Part shown: positions 5,042 through 56,717 of the stretch, in pieces | How positions within the stretch are numbered: position 1 is the first letter of the stretch | Layout: each line of letters starts with the position of its first letter | IMG/VR virus record: IMGVR_UViG_3300046490_000065 | Span: 30,629-94,628 of that record | Source of the DNA: a virus | Taxonomy: Duplodnaviria > Caudoviricetes | DNA length: 64,000 nucleotides | Strand: one strand, 5' to 3' | Position numbers and translations under genes: made by a program | Notes under the pieces: model-generated | What the model was told of the DNA's origin: nothing | Database searches by the model: none | What the model saw: the letters and a program-made list of their open reading frames with translations, nothing else

Positions 5042-5320
5042 ATGAAGATTAAAGTTTCCGTAGAGCGCCTCCCGTTCTGGGTTTGGTTATGCCGGTTTGC
5101 CTACCGTCATGCGGCCAAACGAAGCTCTGGTATCCCCACCGGTCTACCGGGCCATCGGGATCCCGAGAGCCGGTGTGACCAGTACTTCCCTGTGAAGGAA
5201 CCGAGTGGTAAAGGTCCGTGCGGGGGCGACGGGCACTACTTGTGCCGTGATTGCGAATGGCTATCAGCCGAGCGTATCGCTGAGTTCGATGGAAATTTGG
5301 AGGAGTTCTATGGCCGGTAG
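5042..5320 (+). CDS. Cys/His-rich hypothetical protein
   Basis: C...CGGDGHYLCRDC motif; abuts the initiator gene. Confidence 0.5.
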   Translation: MKIKVSVERLPFWVWLCRFAYRHAAKRSSGIPTGLPGHRDPESRCDQYFPVKEPSGKGPCGGDGHYLCRDCEWLSAERIAEFDGNLEEFYGR

Positions 5321-6584
5321 CGAAAGTTGCATTTATCATCCAGAAAGGGACCAGTTTCTAATCATCCGACGCCATTATGTGGAGATGTTCGGAGGTGACG
5401 TTGACCTAGCTGCATTGCTCGCCTTATTCGAGTTCTGGACGAATGGGGAGTTGGATCAGTTTGCCAAGCGGAGAGAGCAAGGAATCCCGTGGGTGACGGT
5501 GGCCATGCCAGTCATCGAACACTGGATGATGAACATCTGTGGACGTCGGAAGATCCAGGACAAATTGGCGCTCTTGGACAAGTGGGGACTTCTCCGGTCA
5601 AACACCCCTGGATGCCAAACTTCCAAGAGCTACCTGCTGAATATAGATGGCTTAAACCAACTCGTCCACTCTGGGGTTAAAGTGGACGAGTCCTTCATCG
5701 GCAATTTTGCCGATGGGGATGCTGCAATCACAGGGTCAAGTAAAGAGGTGATCGGCAAATCTGCCGATCAGAGTCAAGAGGTGAGTAAAGAGGTGATCGG
5801 CAAAAACGACCGAGCTTATGCATTTTCTGCCGATCAGAACGACGATGTATCATTATTGTGTTTAAAGAAAGAAGAAAAGAAAGAAGAAGAGGAACACAAC
5901 TCACCCTCTTTGGTTCCTTCGGAACCTGAAAACCAAAGTCAAAACCCGGATGTTCCTCCCGCCGCCGGCCGTCCAATGTTGGACGGGGACGAGACCCAGG
6001 AATCGGCCCGACCCGGCAAGCGGTCCTGGAAACGCCCAAAGCCAGAACGACCCCACGGGTTCTCCGATCGTATGCGCCAGCTTCGCGAGGGTGCCCACAA
6101 TCAAGCAGCAGACGGGGTAGAGCGGCTTATGACGCCTTCTCGCGTGGTGACCAGCGCTCCGGAGACCCCGATAGCTCCTGGGGCATCCTACGCTCAAGAG
6201 GAGACATTCCCCGTGAGGTGGAATCGGCTGGTACCGGCGCGGCCGGTGGACGCCGGGCTTCTGGCCCCAAATCCGAAGGCGTACCGGGAGCAGGTATTCG
6301 CCCAAAGGTTCGACGAGATCTGCCAAAAGGCCAGCGCTCTTATCGCGGCTGGCGCTGACGTGCAGTTCGGGTTTCTGTTGAGCACCGACCGAGGAACGGA
6401 GCAATACCGGTGGCAACAACTCCTGGCGGGCCAACTGGACTGGATGAAGCCGAGGGCCAACGGGAGCGTCAAGGAAGTGAAGAAGCCGGTAGATGGAGTG
6501 GCGATAGCCGCGCAGATGCGCAAGGAACGATTGGAAAGGGAGGCAAAGGAACGTGCCGCAGAAGTCAACCAAGACACCCACTGA
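5310..6584 (+). CDS. Phage replication initiator (lambda O-like organisation)
   Basis: GGAGGAG then ATG at 5310; winged-helix-like N-terminus, internal iterons, upstream of DnaB. Confidence 0.7.
   Translation: MAGSESCIYHPERDQFLIIRRHYVEMFGGDVDLAALLALFEFWTNGELDQFAKRREQGIPWVTVAMPVIEHWMMNICGRRKIQDKLALLDKWGLLRSNTPGCQTSKSYLLNIDGLNQLVHSGVKVDESFIGNFADGDAAITGSSKEVIGKSADQSQEVSKEVIGKNDRAYAFSADQNDDVSLLCLKKEEKKEEEEHNSPSLVPSEPENQSQNPDVPPAAGRPMLDGDETQESARPGKRSWKRPKPERPHGFSDRMRQLREGAHNQAADGVERLMTPSRVVTSAPETPIAPGASYAQEETFPVRWNRLVPARPVDAGLLAPNPKAYREQVFAQRFDEICQKASALIAAGADVQFGFLLSTDRGTEQYRWQQLLAGQLDWMKPRANGSVKEVKKPVDGVAIAAQMRKERLEREAKERAAEVNQDTH
5697..5890. repeat. Putative replication origin: iterons plus A-rich tract inside the initiator gene
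   Basis: 21-bp direct repeat AGTAAAGAGGTGATCGGCAAA at 5739 and 5784; inverted ATCGGCA/TGCCGAT pairs at 5697-5714 and 5749-5770; purine tract 5864-5890. Confidence 0.65.
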
Positions 6585-49893: not shown

Positions 49894-50234
49894 GCCCCCC
49901 TCCGATCTCTCTTGAACTTACTGAATGCCTTGAAGTCCCAGGTCACCCACCACCCTCTCCATTCCTTGTCGTTCTGGTGGGATGCGTTCTTGATGGGACA
50001 CTCGGTGTCCAAGTAAACCGGCTGGAGGGGGTGGTTGAATGTGGCTGATACGAGCCACAGATTCCCGTGCAGGAGTACGCGGATTCGCTCTCGCCAAGTG
50101 AACCTCCATCGGGTCACGACGTTGCCGGTGTCGTCGCGATACGCCGGGAGGGGCGCGTATTCGGATTGGTGCTCCGCAAGCACAACCTCCGGGAGATCAA
50201 ATCCAGGAACAACAGGGGACACCGGCTCCATCAC
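49890..50234 (-). CDS. Phage hypothetical protein
   Basis: AEHQ.EY.PLPA...W.FTWRERI...F..PLQP motif. Confidence 0.7.
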   Translation of the reverse strand: MMEPVSPVVPGFDLPEVVLAEHQSEYAPLPAYRDDTGNVVTRWRFTWRERIRVLLHGNLWLVSATFNHPLQPVYLDTECPIKNASHQNDKEWRGWWVTWDFKAFSKFKRDRRGA

Positions 50235-50848
50235 TCCACCCGTCCAACATTGGACGCCGTTTCCTCAAACAGGCTACTCGCGTCTTCCTCGGCCGGCGGC
50301 GCCAGCTTCTTCTCGATCAGGTCCGCCAGTTCCGTCCCGGTGTTGAACTTCGCACCCAGGATCTCGGCCAGCCGTTCGGCCGCCACCTCGGTCATGAGTA
50401 CGTGGTGCGGCCGGGGGTGAAGCTCGTACACCCACTCGTTCTCCTGCACCGCGTCCACCACTTCCTGCATGAGCGCATCGACCGTCCGCTCCTGCGTGCG
50501 GGCCAGTTCCTCGTACGCCGGGTAGTTGGCCGGATCGATCAGCACGGTCACCCGGTGCTTCCCGTCCACCATTCCCGCCACGTCGCTGATGTAGGGGATC
50601 AGTTCCTCGGCGTTGCTCAATTGGACGCCCGTGGAATCCAGGACCAACTTCACATCATCCGGCGGGAACAGGACGCCGCCGGTCGCGATCTGGGTCAGGA
50701 CGTCCTCGGTCATGTCGCGGATCTTCTGGGAGGGCGATGCGTCCACCCCTTCCGGCATCTCCATCATGTCCGTCAGGATTGGGACGTGCGCCTCTTTAAG
50801 TTCGATTTCAAGGTTGTACTTCACTGTGTCGGTTGGCTTCTTTGCCAT
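50231..50848 (-). CDS. Acidic hypothetical protein, possible RHH-like segment
   Basis: AGGAG RBS; promoter TTGACT(50899)-17-TACAGT. Confidence 0.65.
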   Translation of the reverse strand: MAKKPTDTVKYNLEIELKEAHVPILTDMMEMPEGVDASPSQKIRDMTEDVLTQIATGGVLFPPDDVKLVLDSTGVQLSNAEELIPYISDVAGMVDGKHRVTVLIDPANYPAYEELARTQERTVDALMQEVVDAVQENEWVYELHPRPHHVLMTEVAAERLAEILGAKFNTGTELADLIEKKLAPPAEEDASSLFEETASNVGRVE

Positions 50849-50955
50849 GGAATTGGAATCTCCTGTGAGCACTGTAACGCAAAGGGTTACTGGAGTCAAG
50901 GGATGTGGCGGTAATCACATCTTTCCTGCCTGTATTCGTGATACTCTTCGTTTGT

Positions 50956-51309
50956 ATGGTCACCTTACGTATTGACGTGTACCATCATGCCGCTCATGAG
51001 GACGACGATGATAACTCCAGTCTCACCCGGATTCTCATGGCGGTCACCAGATTGGAGAAAAAAATGGCAGCTTTGGACGAAGCATTAACAGCACTCACCC
51101 AGAAAGTCACCGACGAGAACACCGTGATCGACGGTGCCATCGTCTTCATCGGCGGAATCCCAGCGCTCATCAAGTCCGCCGTGGATGCGGCTCTGGCGCA
51201 AGGGGCCACCCCCACTCAACTCCAGGCCATGACGGATTTGGGAACCAGCATCCAGAACAAGAAAGACGCACTGGCCGCCGCGCTGGTTGCCGGTACCCCC
51301 TCCGCTTAA
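50956..51309 (+). CDS. Ala-rich helical hypothetical protein
   Basis: Followed by a terminator. Confidence 0.6.
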   Translation: MVTLRIDVYHHAAHEDDDDNSSLTRILMAVTRLEKKMAALDEALTALTQKVTDENTVIDGAIVFIGGIPALIKSAVDAALAQGATPTQLQAMTDLGTSIQNKKDALAAALVAGTPSA

Positions 51310-51333
51310 CCTTCAAGCCGCATCGGCAAATTA

Positions 51334-51370
51334 AAACGGCCCGCTTCCCTTCGCAGGGGGCGGGCCGTTT
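51334..51370. terminator. Bidirectional intrinsic terminator
   Basis: AAACGGCCCGC...GCGGGCCGTTT between convergent genes. Confidence 0.75.
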
Positions 51371-51408
51371 CAGTTGGCGATTCCCTAAAGGCTGTTGGTC
51401 CTATCGTA

Positions 51409-51912
51409 TCACGATAGGCGCTTCCAGGTGGTGCCGTCCGCCTGCATGGCGGTCCCGCCGATCGCGGCGATCATAAGCTCTACCCCTGGGGTGGGCTTCA
51501 GGACGGGAGCGGCGGGAGGCGGCGGCATCACGAAGGAGAACGGCTGGCCGATCTCCATGGCGAACGCTTGGTTGATTTGCTCGACGGATGCGAAGTCGTT
51601 GAAGTACTTCGCCATCAACCCGGCGTTGCGCGGGGTGATGCTTTCGTCGGGTAGCTGGATCATCTGATTCGGCTGGTTTTGCCCCAGCGGTCCACCTACT
51701 CCCGTGATCGCGTTGACCTCGACCACCTTGCAACTGCCCGGCGGCAGGCCGGCGCCCAGTTCGATGATCTGGCAAAGCAGTTGAGCCGTTGCCACGGTGG
51801 CGAAGTAGTAAGGGCTGTACAGGTACGGCCCGGAGTTGGAACTCCCTCCGGGCGGGGGATCGGTTACCCAAGGGTTGGGGCCGAACAACTGTTGTGCAGT
51901 GGGGCTCGTCAT
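51409..51912 (-). CDS. Hypothetical protein
   Basis: GGAAGGA RBS before MTSPTAQ. Confidence 0.6.
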   Translation of the reverse strand: MTSPTAQQLFGPNPWVTDPPPGGSSNSGPYLYSPYYFATVATAQLLCQIIELGAGLPPGSCKVVEVNAITGVGGPLGQNQPNQMIQLPDESITPRNAGLMAKYFNDFASVEQINQAFAMEIGQPFSFVMPPPPAAPVLKPTPGVELMIAAIGGTAMQADGTTWKRLS

Positions 51913-51972
51913 AAAGGTTTGGTTCCTTCCAATTCGGAGTATACCACCCTTTACTTGGGTGGGGATGGCAAA

Positions 51973-52050
51973 TGGAAGGCCGGATGGGAGTCGAACCCAC
52001 ATCGTCCAAATTACGGCTACTGGGGTAGAAACCCAGACCGATACCGGCCC
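51973..52050 (-). ncRNA. D-arm-less tRNA-like RNA (loop UUUCUAC; UCU in standard register)
   Basis: GGGCCGG/CCGGCCT acceptor, GTGGG-TTCGACT-CCCAT T arm, CTGGG/CCCAG stem, CCA end. Confidence 0.7.
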
Positions 52051-52051
52051 A

Positions 52052-52119
52052 TGGAGGGGATGGCGGGATTCGAACCCGCTACCTGTGGAAACCCAGGGCA
52101 CGGCCGCTATACCAGCCCC
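52052..52119 (-). ncRNA. Short tRNA-like RNA (68 nt), identity undetermined
   Basis: GGGGCTG/CATCCCC acceptor with one mismatch, perfect T arm, CCA; irregular D and anticodon arms. Confidence 0.5.
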
Positions 52120-52193
52120 GCTTCATTGATTACTACCTACACCTTCTATTTTCAAACATCGATCCGCGCCTTCATGGTACTGCGCGGCCAAAA

Positions 52194-52270
52194 TGGTCGG
52201 GGAGGGTGGATTCGAACCACCGCTCCTCTGCTCCCAAGGCAGATGGGTTAAACCGCTTCCCTACTCCCCG
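52194..52270 (-). tRNA. tRNA-Pro(TGG)
   Basis: CGGGGAG acceptor, loop CTTGGGA, CCA. Confidence 0.9.
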
Positions 52271-52486
52271 AAAACTTAAAGGCCCGGTCGATCCTTTTTG
52301 TGGGACCGCCGGGCCGCTTTCATCGTGTTTTGGCTGAAAGAATCAGTCGATGACCGGCGGCCCATCCTGGGTATCCACGTGCTTCGCACGGCCGATATTG
52401 GCCGGCTGCATCGTTTCGTTTCTCCCGAATTTGGGTTGCCTTGTCATCTGAGTTAGAGTCTACATCGGATCCGTTTTGGAAGTCAA
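52271..52486 (-). promoter_or_regulatory. Promoter, leader ORF (52343-52447) and antiterminator/terminator upstream of tRNA-Pro
   Basis: TTGACT-18-TAGACT; GGGCCGC (52357-63) can pair with GCGGCCC (52311-17), which overlaps the terminator stem GGCCCGG...CCGGGCC-TTTAAGTTTT. Confidence 0.65.
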
Positions 52487-52520
52487 GACTTATTTTCCGG
52501 TCCAATGTTGGACGCGTCGA

Positions 52521-52721
52521 TCACCTCGTTCGGATCAAAGGTGGCCCCGACCCGGCGTACCCGAGAAGAATCGAGAGTAGCCACAAGCAAACCGCCACGA
52601 TCACCACCACCCGAATGATCCTTGCGATGGCGGCATCCATCGGGATCTGCGCAACCACCCACAGCACGAGGCCCACGATGATCAGGACAATCACTATCTG
52701 CACCAAGAATGCTGGGAACAT
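52521..52721 (-). CDS. Small two-TM membrane protein
   Basis: LIIVGLVLWVVAQIPMD...IIRVVVIVAVCLWLL; GGAGGA RBS. Confidence 0.75.
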   Translation of the reverse strand: MFPAFLVQIVIVLIIVGLVLWVVAQIPMDAAIARIIRVVVIVAVCLWLLSILLGYAGSGPPLIRTR

Positions 52722-52789
52722 AGTTCCTCCTGGGTGCAGTATGATCCTATTCCGTATGATTGCCTGTGCAGATCTGTACAGTGTGGGAG

Positions 52790-52879
52790 TGGAGGAGAGG
52801 GTGGGATTTGAACCCACGGACCCCGAAGGGCCTGCGGTTTTCGGGACCGCCGCCTTAAACCGGGCTCGGCCACCTCTCC
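52790..52879 (-). tRNA. tRNA-Ser(CGA)
   Basis: Long variable arm, loop CCCGAAA (C33), CCA. Confidence 0.85.
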
Positions 52880-52882
52880 TCA

Positions 52883-52955
52883 TGGAGCACCGCCTCGGAA
52901 TTGAACCGAGTTCTACCGGGTTGCAGCCGGTGCGCTCTCCGTTTGCTTGCGGTGC
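52883..52955 (-). tRNA. tRNA-Cys(GCA)
   Basis: Loop CTGCAAC, U73, CCA. Confidence 0.85.
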
Positions 52956-53377
52956 TGAACTAAATCCGTGATCAACTTTTCCAAACGCCCATCCATGATC
53001 GGTGCCAGCGGGTACTGCTTGTCCAGCCGCTCGTCGGTCACCCGCTGTTCAGGGAAGTGGTATGTCCTGATCCGGCCTTCTCCAAACGCTGCTTGGCGCC
53101 GGACATTCTCTTCCGGCTCGCCGACCTTCCCCATTCTCCTGGCGCATTCAAGTTTGTGCCAGTCCTTGAACTGCTTCGTCGCAACCATCCGGAGGAACGC
53201 TGTCCGCTTGTTCGTGGTTTGGCTCCGCTCGTCGGCGGAGTACCCGACCGCCCCGCTCGGCGGGTGCGTCATGCGGATCGCCGTGTGGCTTCGGTTGGCG
53301 TGTTGGCCGCCCTTGCCACCGGACGTCAGGTCCTCGATCTTGAAATCCTTCGCCGTCAATGAAAACAGAAGCGTCAT
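52913..53377 (-). CDS. Minimal class-I release factor homolog (GGQ peptidyl-tRNA hydrolase domain)
   Basis: SGGKGGQHAN...AIRMTHPPSG...ERSQ..NK..A...RIRTYHFPEQRVTD; AGGAGG RBS; 154 aa. Confidence 0.9.
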   Translation of the reverse strand: MTLLFSLTAKDFKIEDLTSGGKGGQHANRSHTAIRMTHPPSGAVGYSADERSQTTNKRTAFLRMVATKQFKDWHKLECARRMGKVGEPEENVRRQAAFGEGRIRTYHFPEQRVTDERLDKQYPLAPIMDGRLEKLITDLVQHRKQTESAPAATR

Positions 53378-53394
53378 GAACCCTCCTGAAACTT

Positions 53395-53469
53395 TGGCAC
53401 TCTCGGCCCGATTCGAACAGGCGTCATCCGGGTTGGAGCCGGAGGTCCTAGCCACTGAACGACGAGAGC
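53395..53469 (-). tRNA. tRNA-Trp(CCA)
   Basis: Loop CTCCAAC, G73, CCA. Confidence 0.9.
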
Positions 53470-53470
53470 A

Positions 53471-53554
53471 TGGTCCGCCCTGCTGGATTCGAACCAGCAA
53501 CGCCCGAAGGCCACCGATTTTGAGCCGGCTGCTTTACCGTTTTGCTAAGGGCGG
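53471..53554 (-). tRNA. tRNA-Leu(CAA)
   Basis: Loop CTCAAAA, long variable arm, CCA. Confidence 0.9.
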
Positions 53555-53560
53555 AAAACT

Positions 53561-53645
53561 TGGTACCGGGGGAGGGACTCCCACCCTCACGTCCTAAGAC
53601 AGTAGTTCCTAAGACTACCGCGTCTAGTAATTCCGCCACCCCGGC
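53561..53645 (-). tRNA. tRNA-Leu(TAG)
   Basis: Loop CTTAGGA, long variable arm; atypical T loop TGGGAGT. Confidence 0.85.
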
Positions 53646-53652
53646 ATAAACT

Positions 53653-53742
53653 TGGTGGACGCGGATGGATTTGAACCACCGTGGCCCCCGAAGAGACAAC
53701 AGGTTTACAGCCTGTCCGTTTCAACCGCTCACGCACGCGTCC
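53653..53742 (-). tRNA. tRNA-Tyr(GTA)
   Basis: Loop CTGTAAA, long variable arm, CCA. Confidence 0.9.
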
Positions 53743-53765
53743 AATTCAGATGTCAAAGAACTTGA

Positions 53766-53855
53766 TGGCGGAAGGTGAGGGATTTGAACCCACGGTGGCC
53801 GAGGCCACAACAGATTAGCAATCTGCCGCAATAAGCCGGACTCTGCCAACCTTCC
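53766..53855 (-). tRNA. tRNA-Ser(GCT)
   Basis: Loop TTGCTAA, long variable arm, G73, CCA. Confidence 0.9.
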
Positions 53856-53863
53856 GAATGTAG

Positions 53864-53944
53864 CTAGAGGGGATACAAACAGGAGCCGGCCGACCAGAGT
53901 CGGTGGCTCGATAGGAGGGACGAACTTGAGAACAGGTAACGCAT
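53864..53944 (-). CDS. Putative 26-aa leader peptide of the tRNA operon
   Basis: MRYLFSSSSLLSSHRLWSAGSCLYPL fills the gap between promoter and first tRNA. Confidence 0.55.
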   Translation of the reverse strand: MRYLFSSSSLLSSHRLWSAGSCLYPL

Positions 53945-53960
53945 ATCAGTTCCGATTTAG

Positions 53961-53989
53961 ATAGTAACTGGAGATGGCTTGGATGTCAA
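53961..53989 (-). promoter_or_regulatory. Strong sigma70 promoter of the tRNA operon
   Basis: TTGACA-17-TACTAT. Confidence 0.8.
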
Positions 53990-54252
53990 GAGGATTTCTT
54001 CTTATCGTCTCGCGCCTGCTCTACCATGGCCTGCGCTCGTCCCTCGACGTTGCCCTGGCTCCTGGCCGCTTCCTTGGTGGCCGCCAGCAATTCATCCATC
54101 CGACTGTTGATCTGAAGGTGAACCGCGTCGATCTTCCTGCTGAGGATGATCCCCACGAAAGACAGGACCGCCGCAAAGATGGCCGGGGCTCCCGCCAGAA
54201 TCACCAACCACACCGTGAACTGCTGCGCTGGAATCATATTCATCGTCCCCAA
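53986..54252 (-). CDS. Small single-TM protein
   Basis: Hydrophobic N-terminus then VHLQINSRMDELL. Confidence 0.6.
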   Translation of the reverse strand: MGTMNMIPAQQFTVWLVILAGAPAIFAAVLSFVGIILSRKIDAVHLQINSRMDELLAATKEAARSQGNVEGRAQAMVEQARDDKKKSS

Positions 54253-56717
54253 TAATTCTCGCGGCTCTCTCCTGGGTCAGGCCGGCCGTTGCCCCGGAGA
54301 CCTTCCGGGTGGGTGTGCTGGATCACGCGCGAGTCATATCCCTTGTACGGCGCTATCGACTCGCCTTTCTCCCCAGTCTTAACCCCAAGCAGGGTATCAA
54401 GGTCCAACGTGGCCCGTGGGTCCGGAGCCTCCAGCGGGATACCAACCAGGAAGATGCTACCACAGTCTTCCTTCGGGCACCGGTACTCCGTGTCCGGCCG
54501 CGCCGCTCCCCACTCACAGCCGCATTTCTTGCAGATCATTTTGTAGCGCGGCGGTTCGACCTCTGATATAGCTAAAGGCGGGTTGATCCTCCCACTGTCG
54601 TCGGCGGCCCATTCGTGGGCACAGTACAGTGCGATCAACACAGAAAGGAGTTCGTCATCGTGGCAGCCCTTGGCGTGCTCGGCCTTCTTGTCGTCCTCGT
54701 CGTCCTTCTGGAAGGTCTGACTTTCCTCCACGAAGTTCGGCGAGCGCACGATGAACCACCCGGCCTTGATCCACTTCCGTCCCTGTTGCCACAGCTTCGG
54801 CTTCGTGTTCGGCTGAGTCATCCAGTGGAACTTGTTGGACATCGGGTCCTTCGAGTCCAGATGCTTCCACCGGAAAAGATTCGGGTACTGATACTGGCCA
54901 CGGACGGCATCGGCCACCGACTTATAGAAGTTGTACTCGATGCACATGAGGGCTTCGTTGTACATCCGGCCGATCGTGTTGGCGAAGAATGCCAGATCCA
55001 GCGGCTCAACGTCGTTCGATCTCCAAATAGCCACTTGCTCATCCGGAGATCCAGCCTTACCCAGTTTGTTCACCGCGATGACGGAGTAGTCCTCACCGAT
55101 TCCTTCAGCGATATCCACCCCAACCGAATACTCCCGGCCTGGGATCGGAGCTTCCCACTGGATGAAGGTGGACTCGTCCTCGCAGAGTTGCGACGTCCTG
55201 TGGTCTGCTGGACAACCATCCACAAAGCATCCAATTTTCAGTTGCTTGCTGCCATCACGGCCGCGATCAAACTTCACCCCGTGGAAGCGCCCCTTGGAGT
55301 CGATGAACCCCACCTTGACGTCCGGGCTCGTCAGGGGGTTCCTCACCGTGAGGGCCATCGCGTCCTGGCACGCCTCGTCGAACACGGCATATCCGGAAAG
55401 TTGCCACCCGTCTTCCGCCGTACAGGCAGTTTCCTGGTGGTGTAACTTCAATGATTCCTTATCTTTAGCCTCTGCGTTCTTCCGCTTGAGTTCCTTCCAT
55501 CGGAGTTGTTCGTCGGAAAGACACGCCGGATTCAGAGTTCCTTTATCGCAGGCCGGGCAGATCATTCCGATCCGACTCTCTCCGCCGAACTTAGCCACGT
55601 GATACTGAGCGCACGCATCACACTTAACCCACTCGCTCATGACGCGCTCTCGCAACATCCGTTCTGGCTTGTCAACGTGCCACCCTTGCGGCGGCGCCAC
55701 GACACGGCTACGCTCCAGAAAGAACGGCAGGAACAACGGATACCACTCAGCATCCTCTCCCATCTTGATATTGGCTTTCCACAGCATGTGTGAGTAGCTT
55801 CCGGAGCCTCGTCCGGTGGACTCCAAGAACCCAAACGAGTTGGGATCGTTATCGTGGATGGAGTGGAGCAAATCGCCTTCGATGATCTCCTTGGCCTTCG
55901 CCTGTTGGAAGTCTGAATACTCCGAGACGTGTGCGGCCGACAGCCGCTTACCTTGCCCGACGCCGGACAACTGGTTGGCGTGCTGCACGTAGATGTGCGA
56001 GTTCATGCCTGGGTTCCGCTGGCGTTGTTCACGGTCCTTGCGGTCGAAGTGAAGTCCACCTTTCACCTCCAGAGTGGCTGCTTCCGGCTTCAGCCACCAC
56101 GGCATTTTATCGTAAAAATGCAACATCAGACCGTACAGGTAGGAGCTTTGTTCTTCATCCACCGAGACCACGATGGCCTCGGTGTTTCGAAAGAACATCG
56201 TCCGCCAAGCTATCATGGCCTCGATGAGGAGCGAGCAACCCAATTGGCGCCCTTTCAAGATCATGATCTTCTGGGCGCGTGACTTCTTTTTCAACTCCAT
56301 CCATTTCTGGAGCACGAGCCACTGGGACTCCCACAGGGTGAACAGTTGGTCGTGGCCTTGGTCATTCGTGATCCAGAAGAATTGGCGGGCCGCGTAGATG
56401 AAGTCTCGGCGGCAGAACCGGGCTTGTTCCAGGACAGAGTTGCGCTCGTCTTTATTGAGGGTTTGGAACCTCTCATCCGGTCCCATCCGGTCCCACTCAC
56501 CCTCTCGGATGTACTTGTCCGCATGTGCGTCCAGGTGGTCCACGAGAAGCTGAACCCCCCGATCTCTCCCCTTGGGAATGACGAGGTTGCCGATCGATAC
56601 GGTGGCGGCTGACGGAGGTAGTTTCTTGGCCTGGGGGATGATTATGGCCGGCGGAATGATGATCTGCGGAGGCGGTGGCTGAATCAGGCAAGCGGCCGGA
56701 TCGAATAGGCTACCCAT
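54240..56717 (-). CDS. terL: Terminase large subunit
   Basis: LKGRQLGCS Walker A, HVSEY Walker B, EST coupling motif, VGVDIAEG and HDD nuclease motifs; Zn-ribbon inserts. Confidence 0.92.
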   Translation of the reverse strand: MGSLFDPAACLIQPPPPQIIIPPAIIIPQAKKLPPSAATVSIGNLVIPKGRDRGVQLLVDHLDAHADKYIREGEWDRMGPDERFQTLNKDERNSVLEQARFCRRDFIYAARQFFWITNDQGHDQLFTLWESQWLVLQKWMELKKKSRAQKIMILKGRQLGCSLLIEAMIAWRTMFFRNTEAIVVSVDEEQSSYLYGLMLHFYDKMPWWLKPEAATLEVKGGLHFDRKDREQRQRNPGMNSHIYVQHANQLSGVGQGKRLSAAHVSEYSDFQQAKAKEIIEGDLLHSIHDNDPNSFGFLESTGRGSGSYSHMLWKANIKMGEDAEWYPLFLPFFLERSRVVAPPQGWHVDKPERMLRERVMSEWVKCDACAQYHVAKFGGESRIGMICPACDKGTLNPACLSDEQLRWKELKRKNAEAKDKESLKLHHQETACTAEDGWQLSGYAVFDEACQDAMALTVRNPLTSPDVKVGFIDSKGRFHGVKFDRGRDGSKQLKIGCFVDGCPADHRTSQLCEDESTFIQWEAPIPGREYSVGVDIAEGIGEDYSVIAVNKLGKAGSPDEQVAIWRSNDVEPLDLAFFANTIGRMYNEALMCIEYNFYKSVADAVRGQYQYPNLFRWKHLDSKDPMSNKFHWMTQPNTKPKLWQQGRKWIKAGWFIVRSPNFVEESQTFQKDDEDDKKAEHAKGCHDDELLSVLIALYCAHEWAADDSGRINPPLAISEVEPPRYKMICKKCGCEWGAARPDTEYRCPKEDCGSIFLVGIPLEAPDPRATLDLDTLLGVKTGEKGESIAPYKGYDSRVIQHTHPEGLRGNGRPDPGESRENYWGR

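Follow-up and report, generated by a model that had tools for sequence, protein, structure and literature searches.

An 81-nt open reading frame on the minus strand of this phage genome, situated between a promoter and the first gene of a tRNA array, has about an even chance, judged from sequence comparison, of being a selected, translated, cis-acting sensory leader. It belongs to a mobile phage module made up of a promoter, the leader open reading frame, tRNAs for Ser, Tyr, Leu, Leu and Trp, a GGQ rescue-type factor, and tRNAs for Cys and Ser. Because the open reading frame is kept in three other diverged phages, it probably gauges how ribosomes decode the amino acids that it specifies. Why phages carry tRNAs and when these tRNAs are expressed are open questions.

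The window is the whole stretch of DNA that was analysed, 64,000 nt in length, and covers two-thirds, on the 3' side, of an IMG/VR virus record of 94.6 kb. Its sole tRNA cluster lies on the minus strand. The features in and around this cluster are as follows, in the direction in which the tRNA genes are read.

53989-54252, minus strand: predicted membrane protein of 88 amino acids, following the large terminase gene
53989..53961, minus strand: sigma70-like promoter, TTGACA (53989..53984)-17-TACTAT (53966..53961), from a promoter scan, 10 of 12 matches
53960..53945, minus strand: interval of 16 nt from the -10 box to the ATG, with a predicted 5' UTR of about 9-10 nt and GGA only
53944..53864, minus strand: leader open reading frame of 26 codons plus TAG, MRYLFSSSSLLSSHRLWSAGSCLYPL, between the promoter and tRNA-Ser(GCU)
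53929..53906, minus strand: run of eight Ser/Leu codons, TCA AGT TCG TCC CTC CTA TCG AGC, candidate control codons
53909..53883, minus strand: bulged hairpin GAGCC-a-CCGAC/tctg/GTCGG-cc-GGCTC, then CTGTTTGTAT; minimum-energy fold, inside the leader open reading frame
53863..53856, minus strand: spacer of 8 nt from the TAG to the mature 5' end of tRNA-Ser(GCU)
53855..53395, minus strand: first tRNA block, Ser, Tyr, Leu, Leu, Trp
53855..53766, minus strand: tRNA-Ser(GCU)
53742..53653, minus strand: tRNA-Tyr(GUA)
53645..53561, minus strand: tRNA-Leu(UAG)
53554..53471, minus strand: tRNA-Leu(CAA)
53469..53395, minus strand: tRNA-Trp(CCA)
53377..52913, minus strand: RF-1 (GGQ)-domain gene, 154 amino acids (Pfam PF00472, 2e-18)
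52955..52886, minus strand: tRNA-Cys, the eighth tRNA (Rfam only, 36 bits)
52879..52790, minus strand: tRNA-Ser(CGA)
52520-52720, minus strand: small predicted membrane protein of about 66 amino acids, between tRNA-Ser(CGA) and the second promoter-like site
52194..52486, minus strand: second promoter-like site TTGACT-18-TAGACT, with a 34-codon open reading frame and tRNA-Pro
52270..52194, minus strand: tRNA-Pro(UGG)

The earlier note had placed the open reading frame between the TTGACA-17-TACTAT promoter and the first tRNA, and all of these elements lie where it put them, on the minus strand; the coordinates of the TAG and of tRNA-Ser(GCU) likewise agree with a stop codon 8 nt ahead of the tRNA. 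The -35 box of the promoter overlaps the TGA stop of the upstream 88-amino-acid open reading frame (53989-54252), for which no Pfam match was found. The GGQ protein of the window has the RF-1 domain and lacks the codon-reading domain, and its gene has a GGAGG Shine-Dalgarno sequence and overlaps tRNA-Cys with its last 14 or so codons, at the 3' end. GGQ-only proteins of the RF-1-domain family are very common beside or inside phage tRNA arrays (loci L011-L170), with 182 confirmed IMG/VR matches and a further set of over 444 from metagenome contigs, and carry the signature motifs LLFSLTxKDF and FKDWHKxECARR.

The second promoter-like site, the 34-codon open reading frame and tRNA-Pro look like a separate unit. 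This open reading frame begins 9 nt past the second promoter-like site (the two together at 52486..52343) and ends in DGPPVID; Pro accounts for 4 of its 33 codons, so that there is no mirroring of Pro, and it is not conserved in the corresponding stretch of locus L003 (5670-5840). The L003 tRNA at the position of the window's tRNA-Pro has the loop CTTGAGA (anticodon UGA), not UGG.

The closest terminase relative of the window, at 80% identity, is found in locus L001, from which the entire 3.3-kb module is absent (window 50900-54240 vs L001 2300-2810). Besides promoter, leader, tRNAs and GGQ gene, the missing block contains the 88-amino-acid membrane open reading frame and another two open reading frames, and the L001 terminase gene directly abuts a homologue of window 50899..50231. 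As L001 does without the whole of it, the tRNA module is accessory. The L001 terminase has a LAGLIDADG_3 domain, by appearance an intein insert.

The leader of the window is rich in codons for the amino acids of its array. The count in the earlier note was correct: 19 of the 25 codons after the start specify Ser (8), Leu (6), Tyr (2), Trp, Cys or Pro, and seven of the eight tRNAs have cognate codons there, 12 codons being strictly cognate. By both mono- and dinucleotide shuffles, P is about 0.003-0.004 for the set of six amino acids and 0.001-0.003 for the strictly cognate codons. Pro has a single codon and is not enriched, so the proposed mirror of six amino acids stands for the other five and not for Pro. 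With Pro left out, Ser, Leu, Tyr, Trp and Cys take 18 of the 25 codons (72%), a count that none of 10,000 dinucleotide shuffles reached (mean 9.5); the long open reading frames of the same phage have 21.4%. Each of the two alternative frames of the leader has six such codons, and the leader ranks first among the 419 short open reading frames within the window and first among the 434 short ATG open reading frames of the whole 94.6-kb genome. It had been cautioned that a pyrimidine-rich leader would yield Ser, Leu and Pro codons anyway. The five-amino-acid content exceeds what shuffling gives, and the shuffles, the six codons in the other frames and the top rank together indicate that pyrimidine richness alone is insufficient.

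We located homologous arrays through the GGQ protein. In loci L003 and L004 this protein is 85% identical to that of the window and the array reads Ser-Tyr-Leu-Leu-Trp-GGQ-Ser; in L007 it is 60% identical and the array reads Ser-Tyr-Leu-(Leu-Trp)-GGQ-Cys-Ser; and in L011, a virus contig of 106 kb that carries over 20 tRNAs, it is 43% identical. The homologous leaders are ATG open reading frames of 23-29 codons.

L003/L004, 4434-4523: leader open reading frame, MIRTLSSAWIETPLLSSARLWCRSCLYSS
L007, 1113-1184: leader open reading frame, MAKTLSSSHQSWLSLSLLSYWCL
L011, 5058-5135: leader open reading frame, MNRAHILSLLSRSCLWSSRLQLSSY

From the stop codon of the leader to the first tRNA there are 8 nt in the window, 8 in L003, 6 in L007 and 18 in L011. 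The five amino acids Ser, Leu, Tyr, Trp and Cys make up 72%, 61%, 77% and 67% of the respective leaders, and each of the four leaders has at least one Trp, at least one Cys and at least one Tyr. The open reading frame is not a chance product of a pyrimidine-rich leader, and three further diverged arrays that share this tRNA set retain it, open and with the same skew. The genes upstream are all different (the terminase and 88-amino-acid open reading frame, a 1204-amino-acid, a 107-amino-acid and a 90-amino-acid gene), and the homology between the window and L003 begins exactly at CTCTTGACA; promoter, leader and array thus move as one unit. In the same phage from two samples, the anticodon of tRNA-Tyr is ATA (L005 144-229) in one and GTA (L003 4642-4727) in the other.

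The leader could also be non-coding, its RNA or DNA having been selected as a processing, stability, Rho-loading or promoter-proximal element, with the open frame and the Ser/Leu bias as by-products of TC-rich sequence. We regard this as unlikely. The leaders are 59-67% pyrimidine, with a C>G skew of 0.15-0.30, a skew that also follows from Ser/Leu codons. A Shine-Dalgarno sequence is absent, and gene callers do not report the open reading frame. The window, L003 and L011 share the blocks TCC CTC CTR TCG (S-L-L-S) and TCC TGT TTG T (S-C-L-Y/W), which are conserved in nucleotides, almost without synonymous variation. Between the leaders of the window and L003, all 10 codon differences are non-synonymous and the shared codons are identical in nucleotides, which is not what purifying selection on a peptide classically leaves behind.

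Several properties of the leaders are nevertheless hard to obtain as by-products. In the window, L003 and L007 the observed count of Ser, Leu, Tyr, Trp and Cys codons was reached in none of 10,000 dinucleotide shuffles, and the alternative frames have just 5-7 such codons. An ATG open reading frame spanning the distance from promoter to tRNA arises in 1.6-3.5% of dinucleotide shuffles per interval, and one that also has the observed composition in at most 5e-5. The two conserved blocks stand in one frame despite spacers of 24 nt (window), 21 nt (L003) and 3 nt (L011); the L003 leader has an additional 12-nt insert upstream, and the indels are in frame. The leader of L007, whose nucleotide similarity to the other three is not significant, keeps both the frame and the composition. 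It retains M-x-K/R-T-L-S-S and S-L-L-S through different codon families, the S-L-L-S core that is kept in all four leaders being spelled TCA TTG TTA AGT in L007 vs TCC CTC CTA TCG in the window. A period-3 signal is also present in the window, L003 and L007, with T at codon position 1 in 43-50% of codons. Among 5,964 short ATG open reading frames in about 1 Mb of phage loci, the four leaders rank 1, 2, 6 and about 21. On this evidence the case is evenly balanced for the 81-nt open reading frame as a real leader mini-gene under selection, where selection, translation and a sensory role are taken jointly.

The evidence for coding would serve equally well for a small peptide acting in trans, on a host factor or on the GGQ protein, or for translation that merely keeps ribosomes on the 5' end. 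The short motifs T-L-S-S, S-L-L-S and S-C-L-Y/W recur, and the similarity of the L007 and L003 peptides beats that of composition-matched shuffles (P 0.0065). Most pairwise peptide scores among the leaders are, however, no better than those of composition-matched shuffles, residue order is poorly conserved, and there is no homologous protein family to anchor a function. What is conserved is the composition, which coincides with the tRNA set. The conservation of the open frame and of the composition, and not of residue order, is as expected for control codons and not for a folded product, and we consider an activity of the peptide in trans, or translation with no sensing role, quite improbable.

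Each of the homologous arrays has its own sigma70-like promoter, located 6-16 nt ahead of the ATG in all four cases. The promoter core CTCTTGACATCCA...CAGTTA is identical in the window and L003. A search with the promoter-core pattern returned L171 only, an IMG/VR phage in which CTCTTGACATCCA-N9-CAGTTA lies at 639-666 on the minus strand, ahead of an unrelated protein gene; this sharing suggests a promoter type specific to the lineage of the window's phage. The gap between the -10 box and the ATG is 6 nt in L007 and L011, 8 nt in L003 and 16 nt in the window, which places the A of the ATG at the 7th, 9th and 17th nucleotide after the box, respectively; in the alignment of the window with L003, the window has an 8-nt insertion at this point. 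In L007, L011 and L003 the ATG would coincide with the predicted transcription start, since it is only 6-8 nt past the -10 box, and this spacing suggests that the mRNA is leaderless in these three of the four arrays. Leaderless initiation requires an ATG start, and the start codon is ATG in all four leaders. Further promoter-ATG pairs with similar spacing occur elsewhere in the phage of the window. A caveat of the earlier note, that the Shine-Dalgarno sequence is weak, was well placed: the window has GGA only.

The correspondence between leader and tRNAs is observed at the level of amino acids and not at that of cognate codons. The earlier reading that the codons themselves mirror the array holds in the window, where cognate-codon matching is significant (P 0.001); the matching is not significant in L003 (0.07) and L007 (0.09). 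Of 29 Ser codons, 12 are AGY or TCG and so readable by the phage Ser(GCU) and Ser(CGA). Matching to amino acids and not to cognate codons argues against a simple isoacceptor-specific sensor. The tRNA sets of the window, L003, L007 and L011 are essentially the same, and the mirror within them therefore represents one evolutionary association, not four.

The suggestion that homologous leaders track the tRNA content of their arrays finds partial support in L011, where the leader heads only the matching sub-block; with the same set in all arrays there is no variation within the family to follow. This sub-block consists of Cys-like, Leu(UAG), Trp, Ser(GCU), Tyr and Leu(UAA) elements (Cys-like cloverleaf, 5154-5228; Trp, 5849-5918). 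The Cys-like element folds as a cloverleaf and was unscored by Rfam and ARAGORN. The 16 other tRNAs detected in L011 are in a separate upstream block and serve Asn, Val, Arg, Ile, Gln, Met, Lys, Glu, Asp and Phe.

We also carried out a blind scan of tRNA blocks serving at most eight amino acids in the fetched loci (at most seven in the filtered scan), in which short ATG open reading frames ending just upstream were scored for the amino acids of their block. The top scorers were the window, L007 and L003. When a TAnnnT box is required 5-9 nt ahead of the start codon, 15 open reading frames remain, and four of them have P<1e-3, where about 0.015 are expected. Two of these four leaderless-spaced mirroring open reading frames are outside the family of the window, in L142 (Pro/Ala) and L069 (Ile). 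In L142 (5700-5960; also L028 and L031), an extended -10 box, TGGTATAAT, has an ATG at the 7th nucleotide past it, beginning a 16-codon open reading frame, MTYKNIDRPAPAAPKA, that ends in RPAPAAPKA; downstream are a 5-bp hairpin, tRNA-Pro(UGG) and tRNA-Ala(UGC). The L142 array also contains a tRNA with the anticodon CUA, an amber reader. In L069 (2450-2640), the open reading frame, with the probable product MIRVVISRIKIII, has a stop codon that overlaps tRNA-Ile(UAU) at its first bases; Ile is spelled six times, as ATT or ATC and not as the ATA read by this tRNA. By their sequence arrangement, the two cases support a wider principle of leaders that would mirror their tRNA blocks.

Phage tRNA loci totalling about 1 Mb, together with pattern scans of IMG/VR and genomes, yielded only four leaders of the window's type. 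Proteins close to the GGQ protein in IMG/VR led to no further instance, and exact and degenerate leader and tRNA-Leu patterns gave none in IMG/VR and GTDB genomes beyond L011's own contig. A search of INPHARED phages returned generic tRNA matches only. The further GGQ homologues P0005, P0006, P0009, P0058 and P0070 had no matching array in the DNA retrieved, and in the Ser(UGA)-Leu-Leu-Tyr arrays of L097 and L130 a leader open reading frame is absent. Several candidates were rejected as leaders: that of L013 is off-frame inside a real gene, at its 3' end, with a terminator following; those of L008-L010 and L091-L092 are weak HMM matches with no ATG, antisense to a gene; and L040, L041 and similar cases are simple repeats with no tRNAs nearby.

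The earlier note had also described a hairpin inside the leader open reading frame, and this is present as described and is the minimum-energy fold. A classical attenuator of the trp/his type would use the hairpin (53909..53883) and its U-rich tail as an intrinsic terminator, which could not form while a ribosome was stalled on the Ser/Leu codons ahead of it. In the window the hairpin dominates the local folding and has CUGUUUGUAU after it, its 5' arm would be covered by a ribosome stalled at codons 8-13, and one compensatory change, from C:G to G:C, is found in the outer stem between the window and L003. The hairpin segment is, however, a 24/21-nt in-frame insert present only in the window and L003; it is missing from L007 and L011, and the L003 hairpin, having lost 3 nt, is weaker. 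A terminator scan of the four leaders reported no terminator-like site, the hairpin of the window included, and the U tract is poor. The fold energies of the leaders are ordinary relative to shuffles (z -0.8, +0.4 and +1.1). As the earlier note had itself cautioned, an antiterminator is not visible: single-sequence folds of the leaders contained no alternative pairing over the control codons. No structure common to the four leaders was found, four sequences being too few for a covariation test, and neither was a consistent leader-tRNA pairing across the leaders; an Rfam scan of window 50000-56000 at E<=1 gave no T-box or tRNA-like match in the leader. In addition, any translating ribosome would melt a hairpin that is inside the open reading frame. 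The proposal that the hairpin and CTGTTTGTAT act as an attenuator is not supported; the output step is not intrinsic termination at this hairpin, and a classical attenuator is very improbable.

We return to the translated sensory leader. The leader would be translated from a leaderless or near-leaderless transcript, and a scarcity of charged tRNAs for these amino acids would slow ribosomes on the Ser/Leu run and on the codons for Trp, Cys and Tyr. Occupancy of the leader by ribosomes would then raise the output of the downstream tRNAs, a direction of response that we infer. The link from stalling to tRNA output is a conjecture. Given that the regulated genes are tRNAs and that terminators are not conserved, the output must lie in Rho-dependent termination, in processing or in stability. 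Our preferred guess is that an unstructured, C-rich stretch on which Rho would load is masked by the stalled ribosome, and the leaders, being C>G skewed and without excess structure, are compatible with a Rho entry site. Alternatively, a ribosome at the stop codon might block access to the first tRNA at its acceptor stem and RNase P site; the latter would be covered because the stop is 6-8 nt from the tRNA.

A broader proposal is that phage tRNA modules carry a leaderless, ribosome-read gauge that switches on replacement tRNAs, here together with a codon-independent GGQ rescue factor, which we consider possible and rather doubtful. The trigger of such a gauge would be faltering decoding, as might be caused by tRNA-cleaving host defences or by phage-induced loss of host tRNAs. 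Recent reports describe phage tRNAs as able to rescue infection from tRNA-cleaving defences (PMC10264068, PMC11464382, PMC11555353). For the leader of the window, the analysis found nothing that ties it to defence nucleases, as the earlier note had suggested it might be.

The control of genes by ribosomes on a leader is known, and its use on tRNA genes is apparently not in print; a full-text literature search turned up no account of a leader peptide in a tRNA operon or in an array of phage tRNAs. If the sensory reading is true, tRNA genes would here have their first described case of control by a leader peptide, as far as that search extends. The L142 and L069 cases would then make the leader gauge a general, undescribed principle of tRNA gene regulation, and the promoter with its 23-29-codon open reading frame would be a compact part that can be tested in a reporter.

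Amino acid operons are controlled by attenuators with leader peptides, among them trpL, hisL, leuL, thrL, pheL and the multivalent ilvL. Like leaders of the trpL/hisL type, the phage leaders are short open reading frames just past a promoter (in all four arrays), with clusters of codons (SSSSLLSS) and a multivalent content of five amino acids, at the amino-acid level only. They differ in having no conserved intrinsic terminator between the open reading frame and the first gene and no antiterminator pair, in the regulation of tRNAs instead of biosynthetic enzymes, and in a start that looks leaderless in three of the four and is not driven by a Shine-Dalgarno sequence. In TnaC the nascent peptide, with the ribosome at the stop codon, serves to sense free tryptophan, and attenuation of tna is Rho-dependent. 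As in TnaC, a ribosome stalled on the short leader could mask a C-rich unstructured Rho site near the stop; masking of the tna type needs no terminator hairpin, which would explain why one is lacking here. Unlike in TnaC, the proposed signal is tRNA supply and not free tryptophan.

The trn operon of Anabaena PCC 7120 is a long tRNA array that is induced by stress and controlled by a repressor, whose direct-repeat binding sites cover the -10 box and the start of transcription (PMC8421152, PMC10272220). It resembles the phage module in being an accessory tRNA array, and its expression rises when translation is impaired. It differs in that control there is by a repressor; the trn paper contains neither "leader" nor "attenuat". 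In mycobacteria, leaderless polycysteine short open reading frames are Cys-responsive attenuators, for which ribosome pausing is the proposed signal (bioRxiv 10.1101/834739). Like these, the phage leader is unannotated and enriched in the amino acids that it would sense, and in three of the four arrays promoter spacing predicts its AUG at or near the 5' end. Unlike them, it has tRNAs downstream and five amino acids instead of one, and no duplex like theirs was seen. By analogy, we read the mycobacterial leaderless polycysteine open reading frames as the nearest documented kind for the leader of the window.
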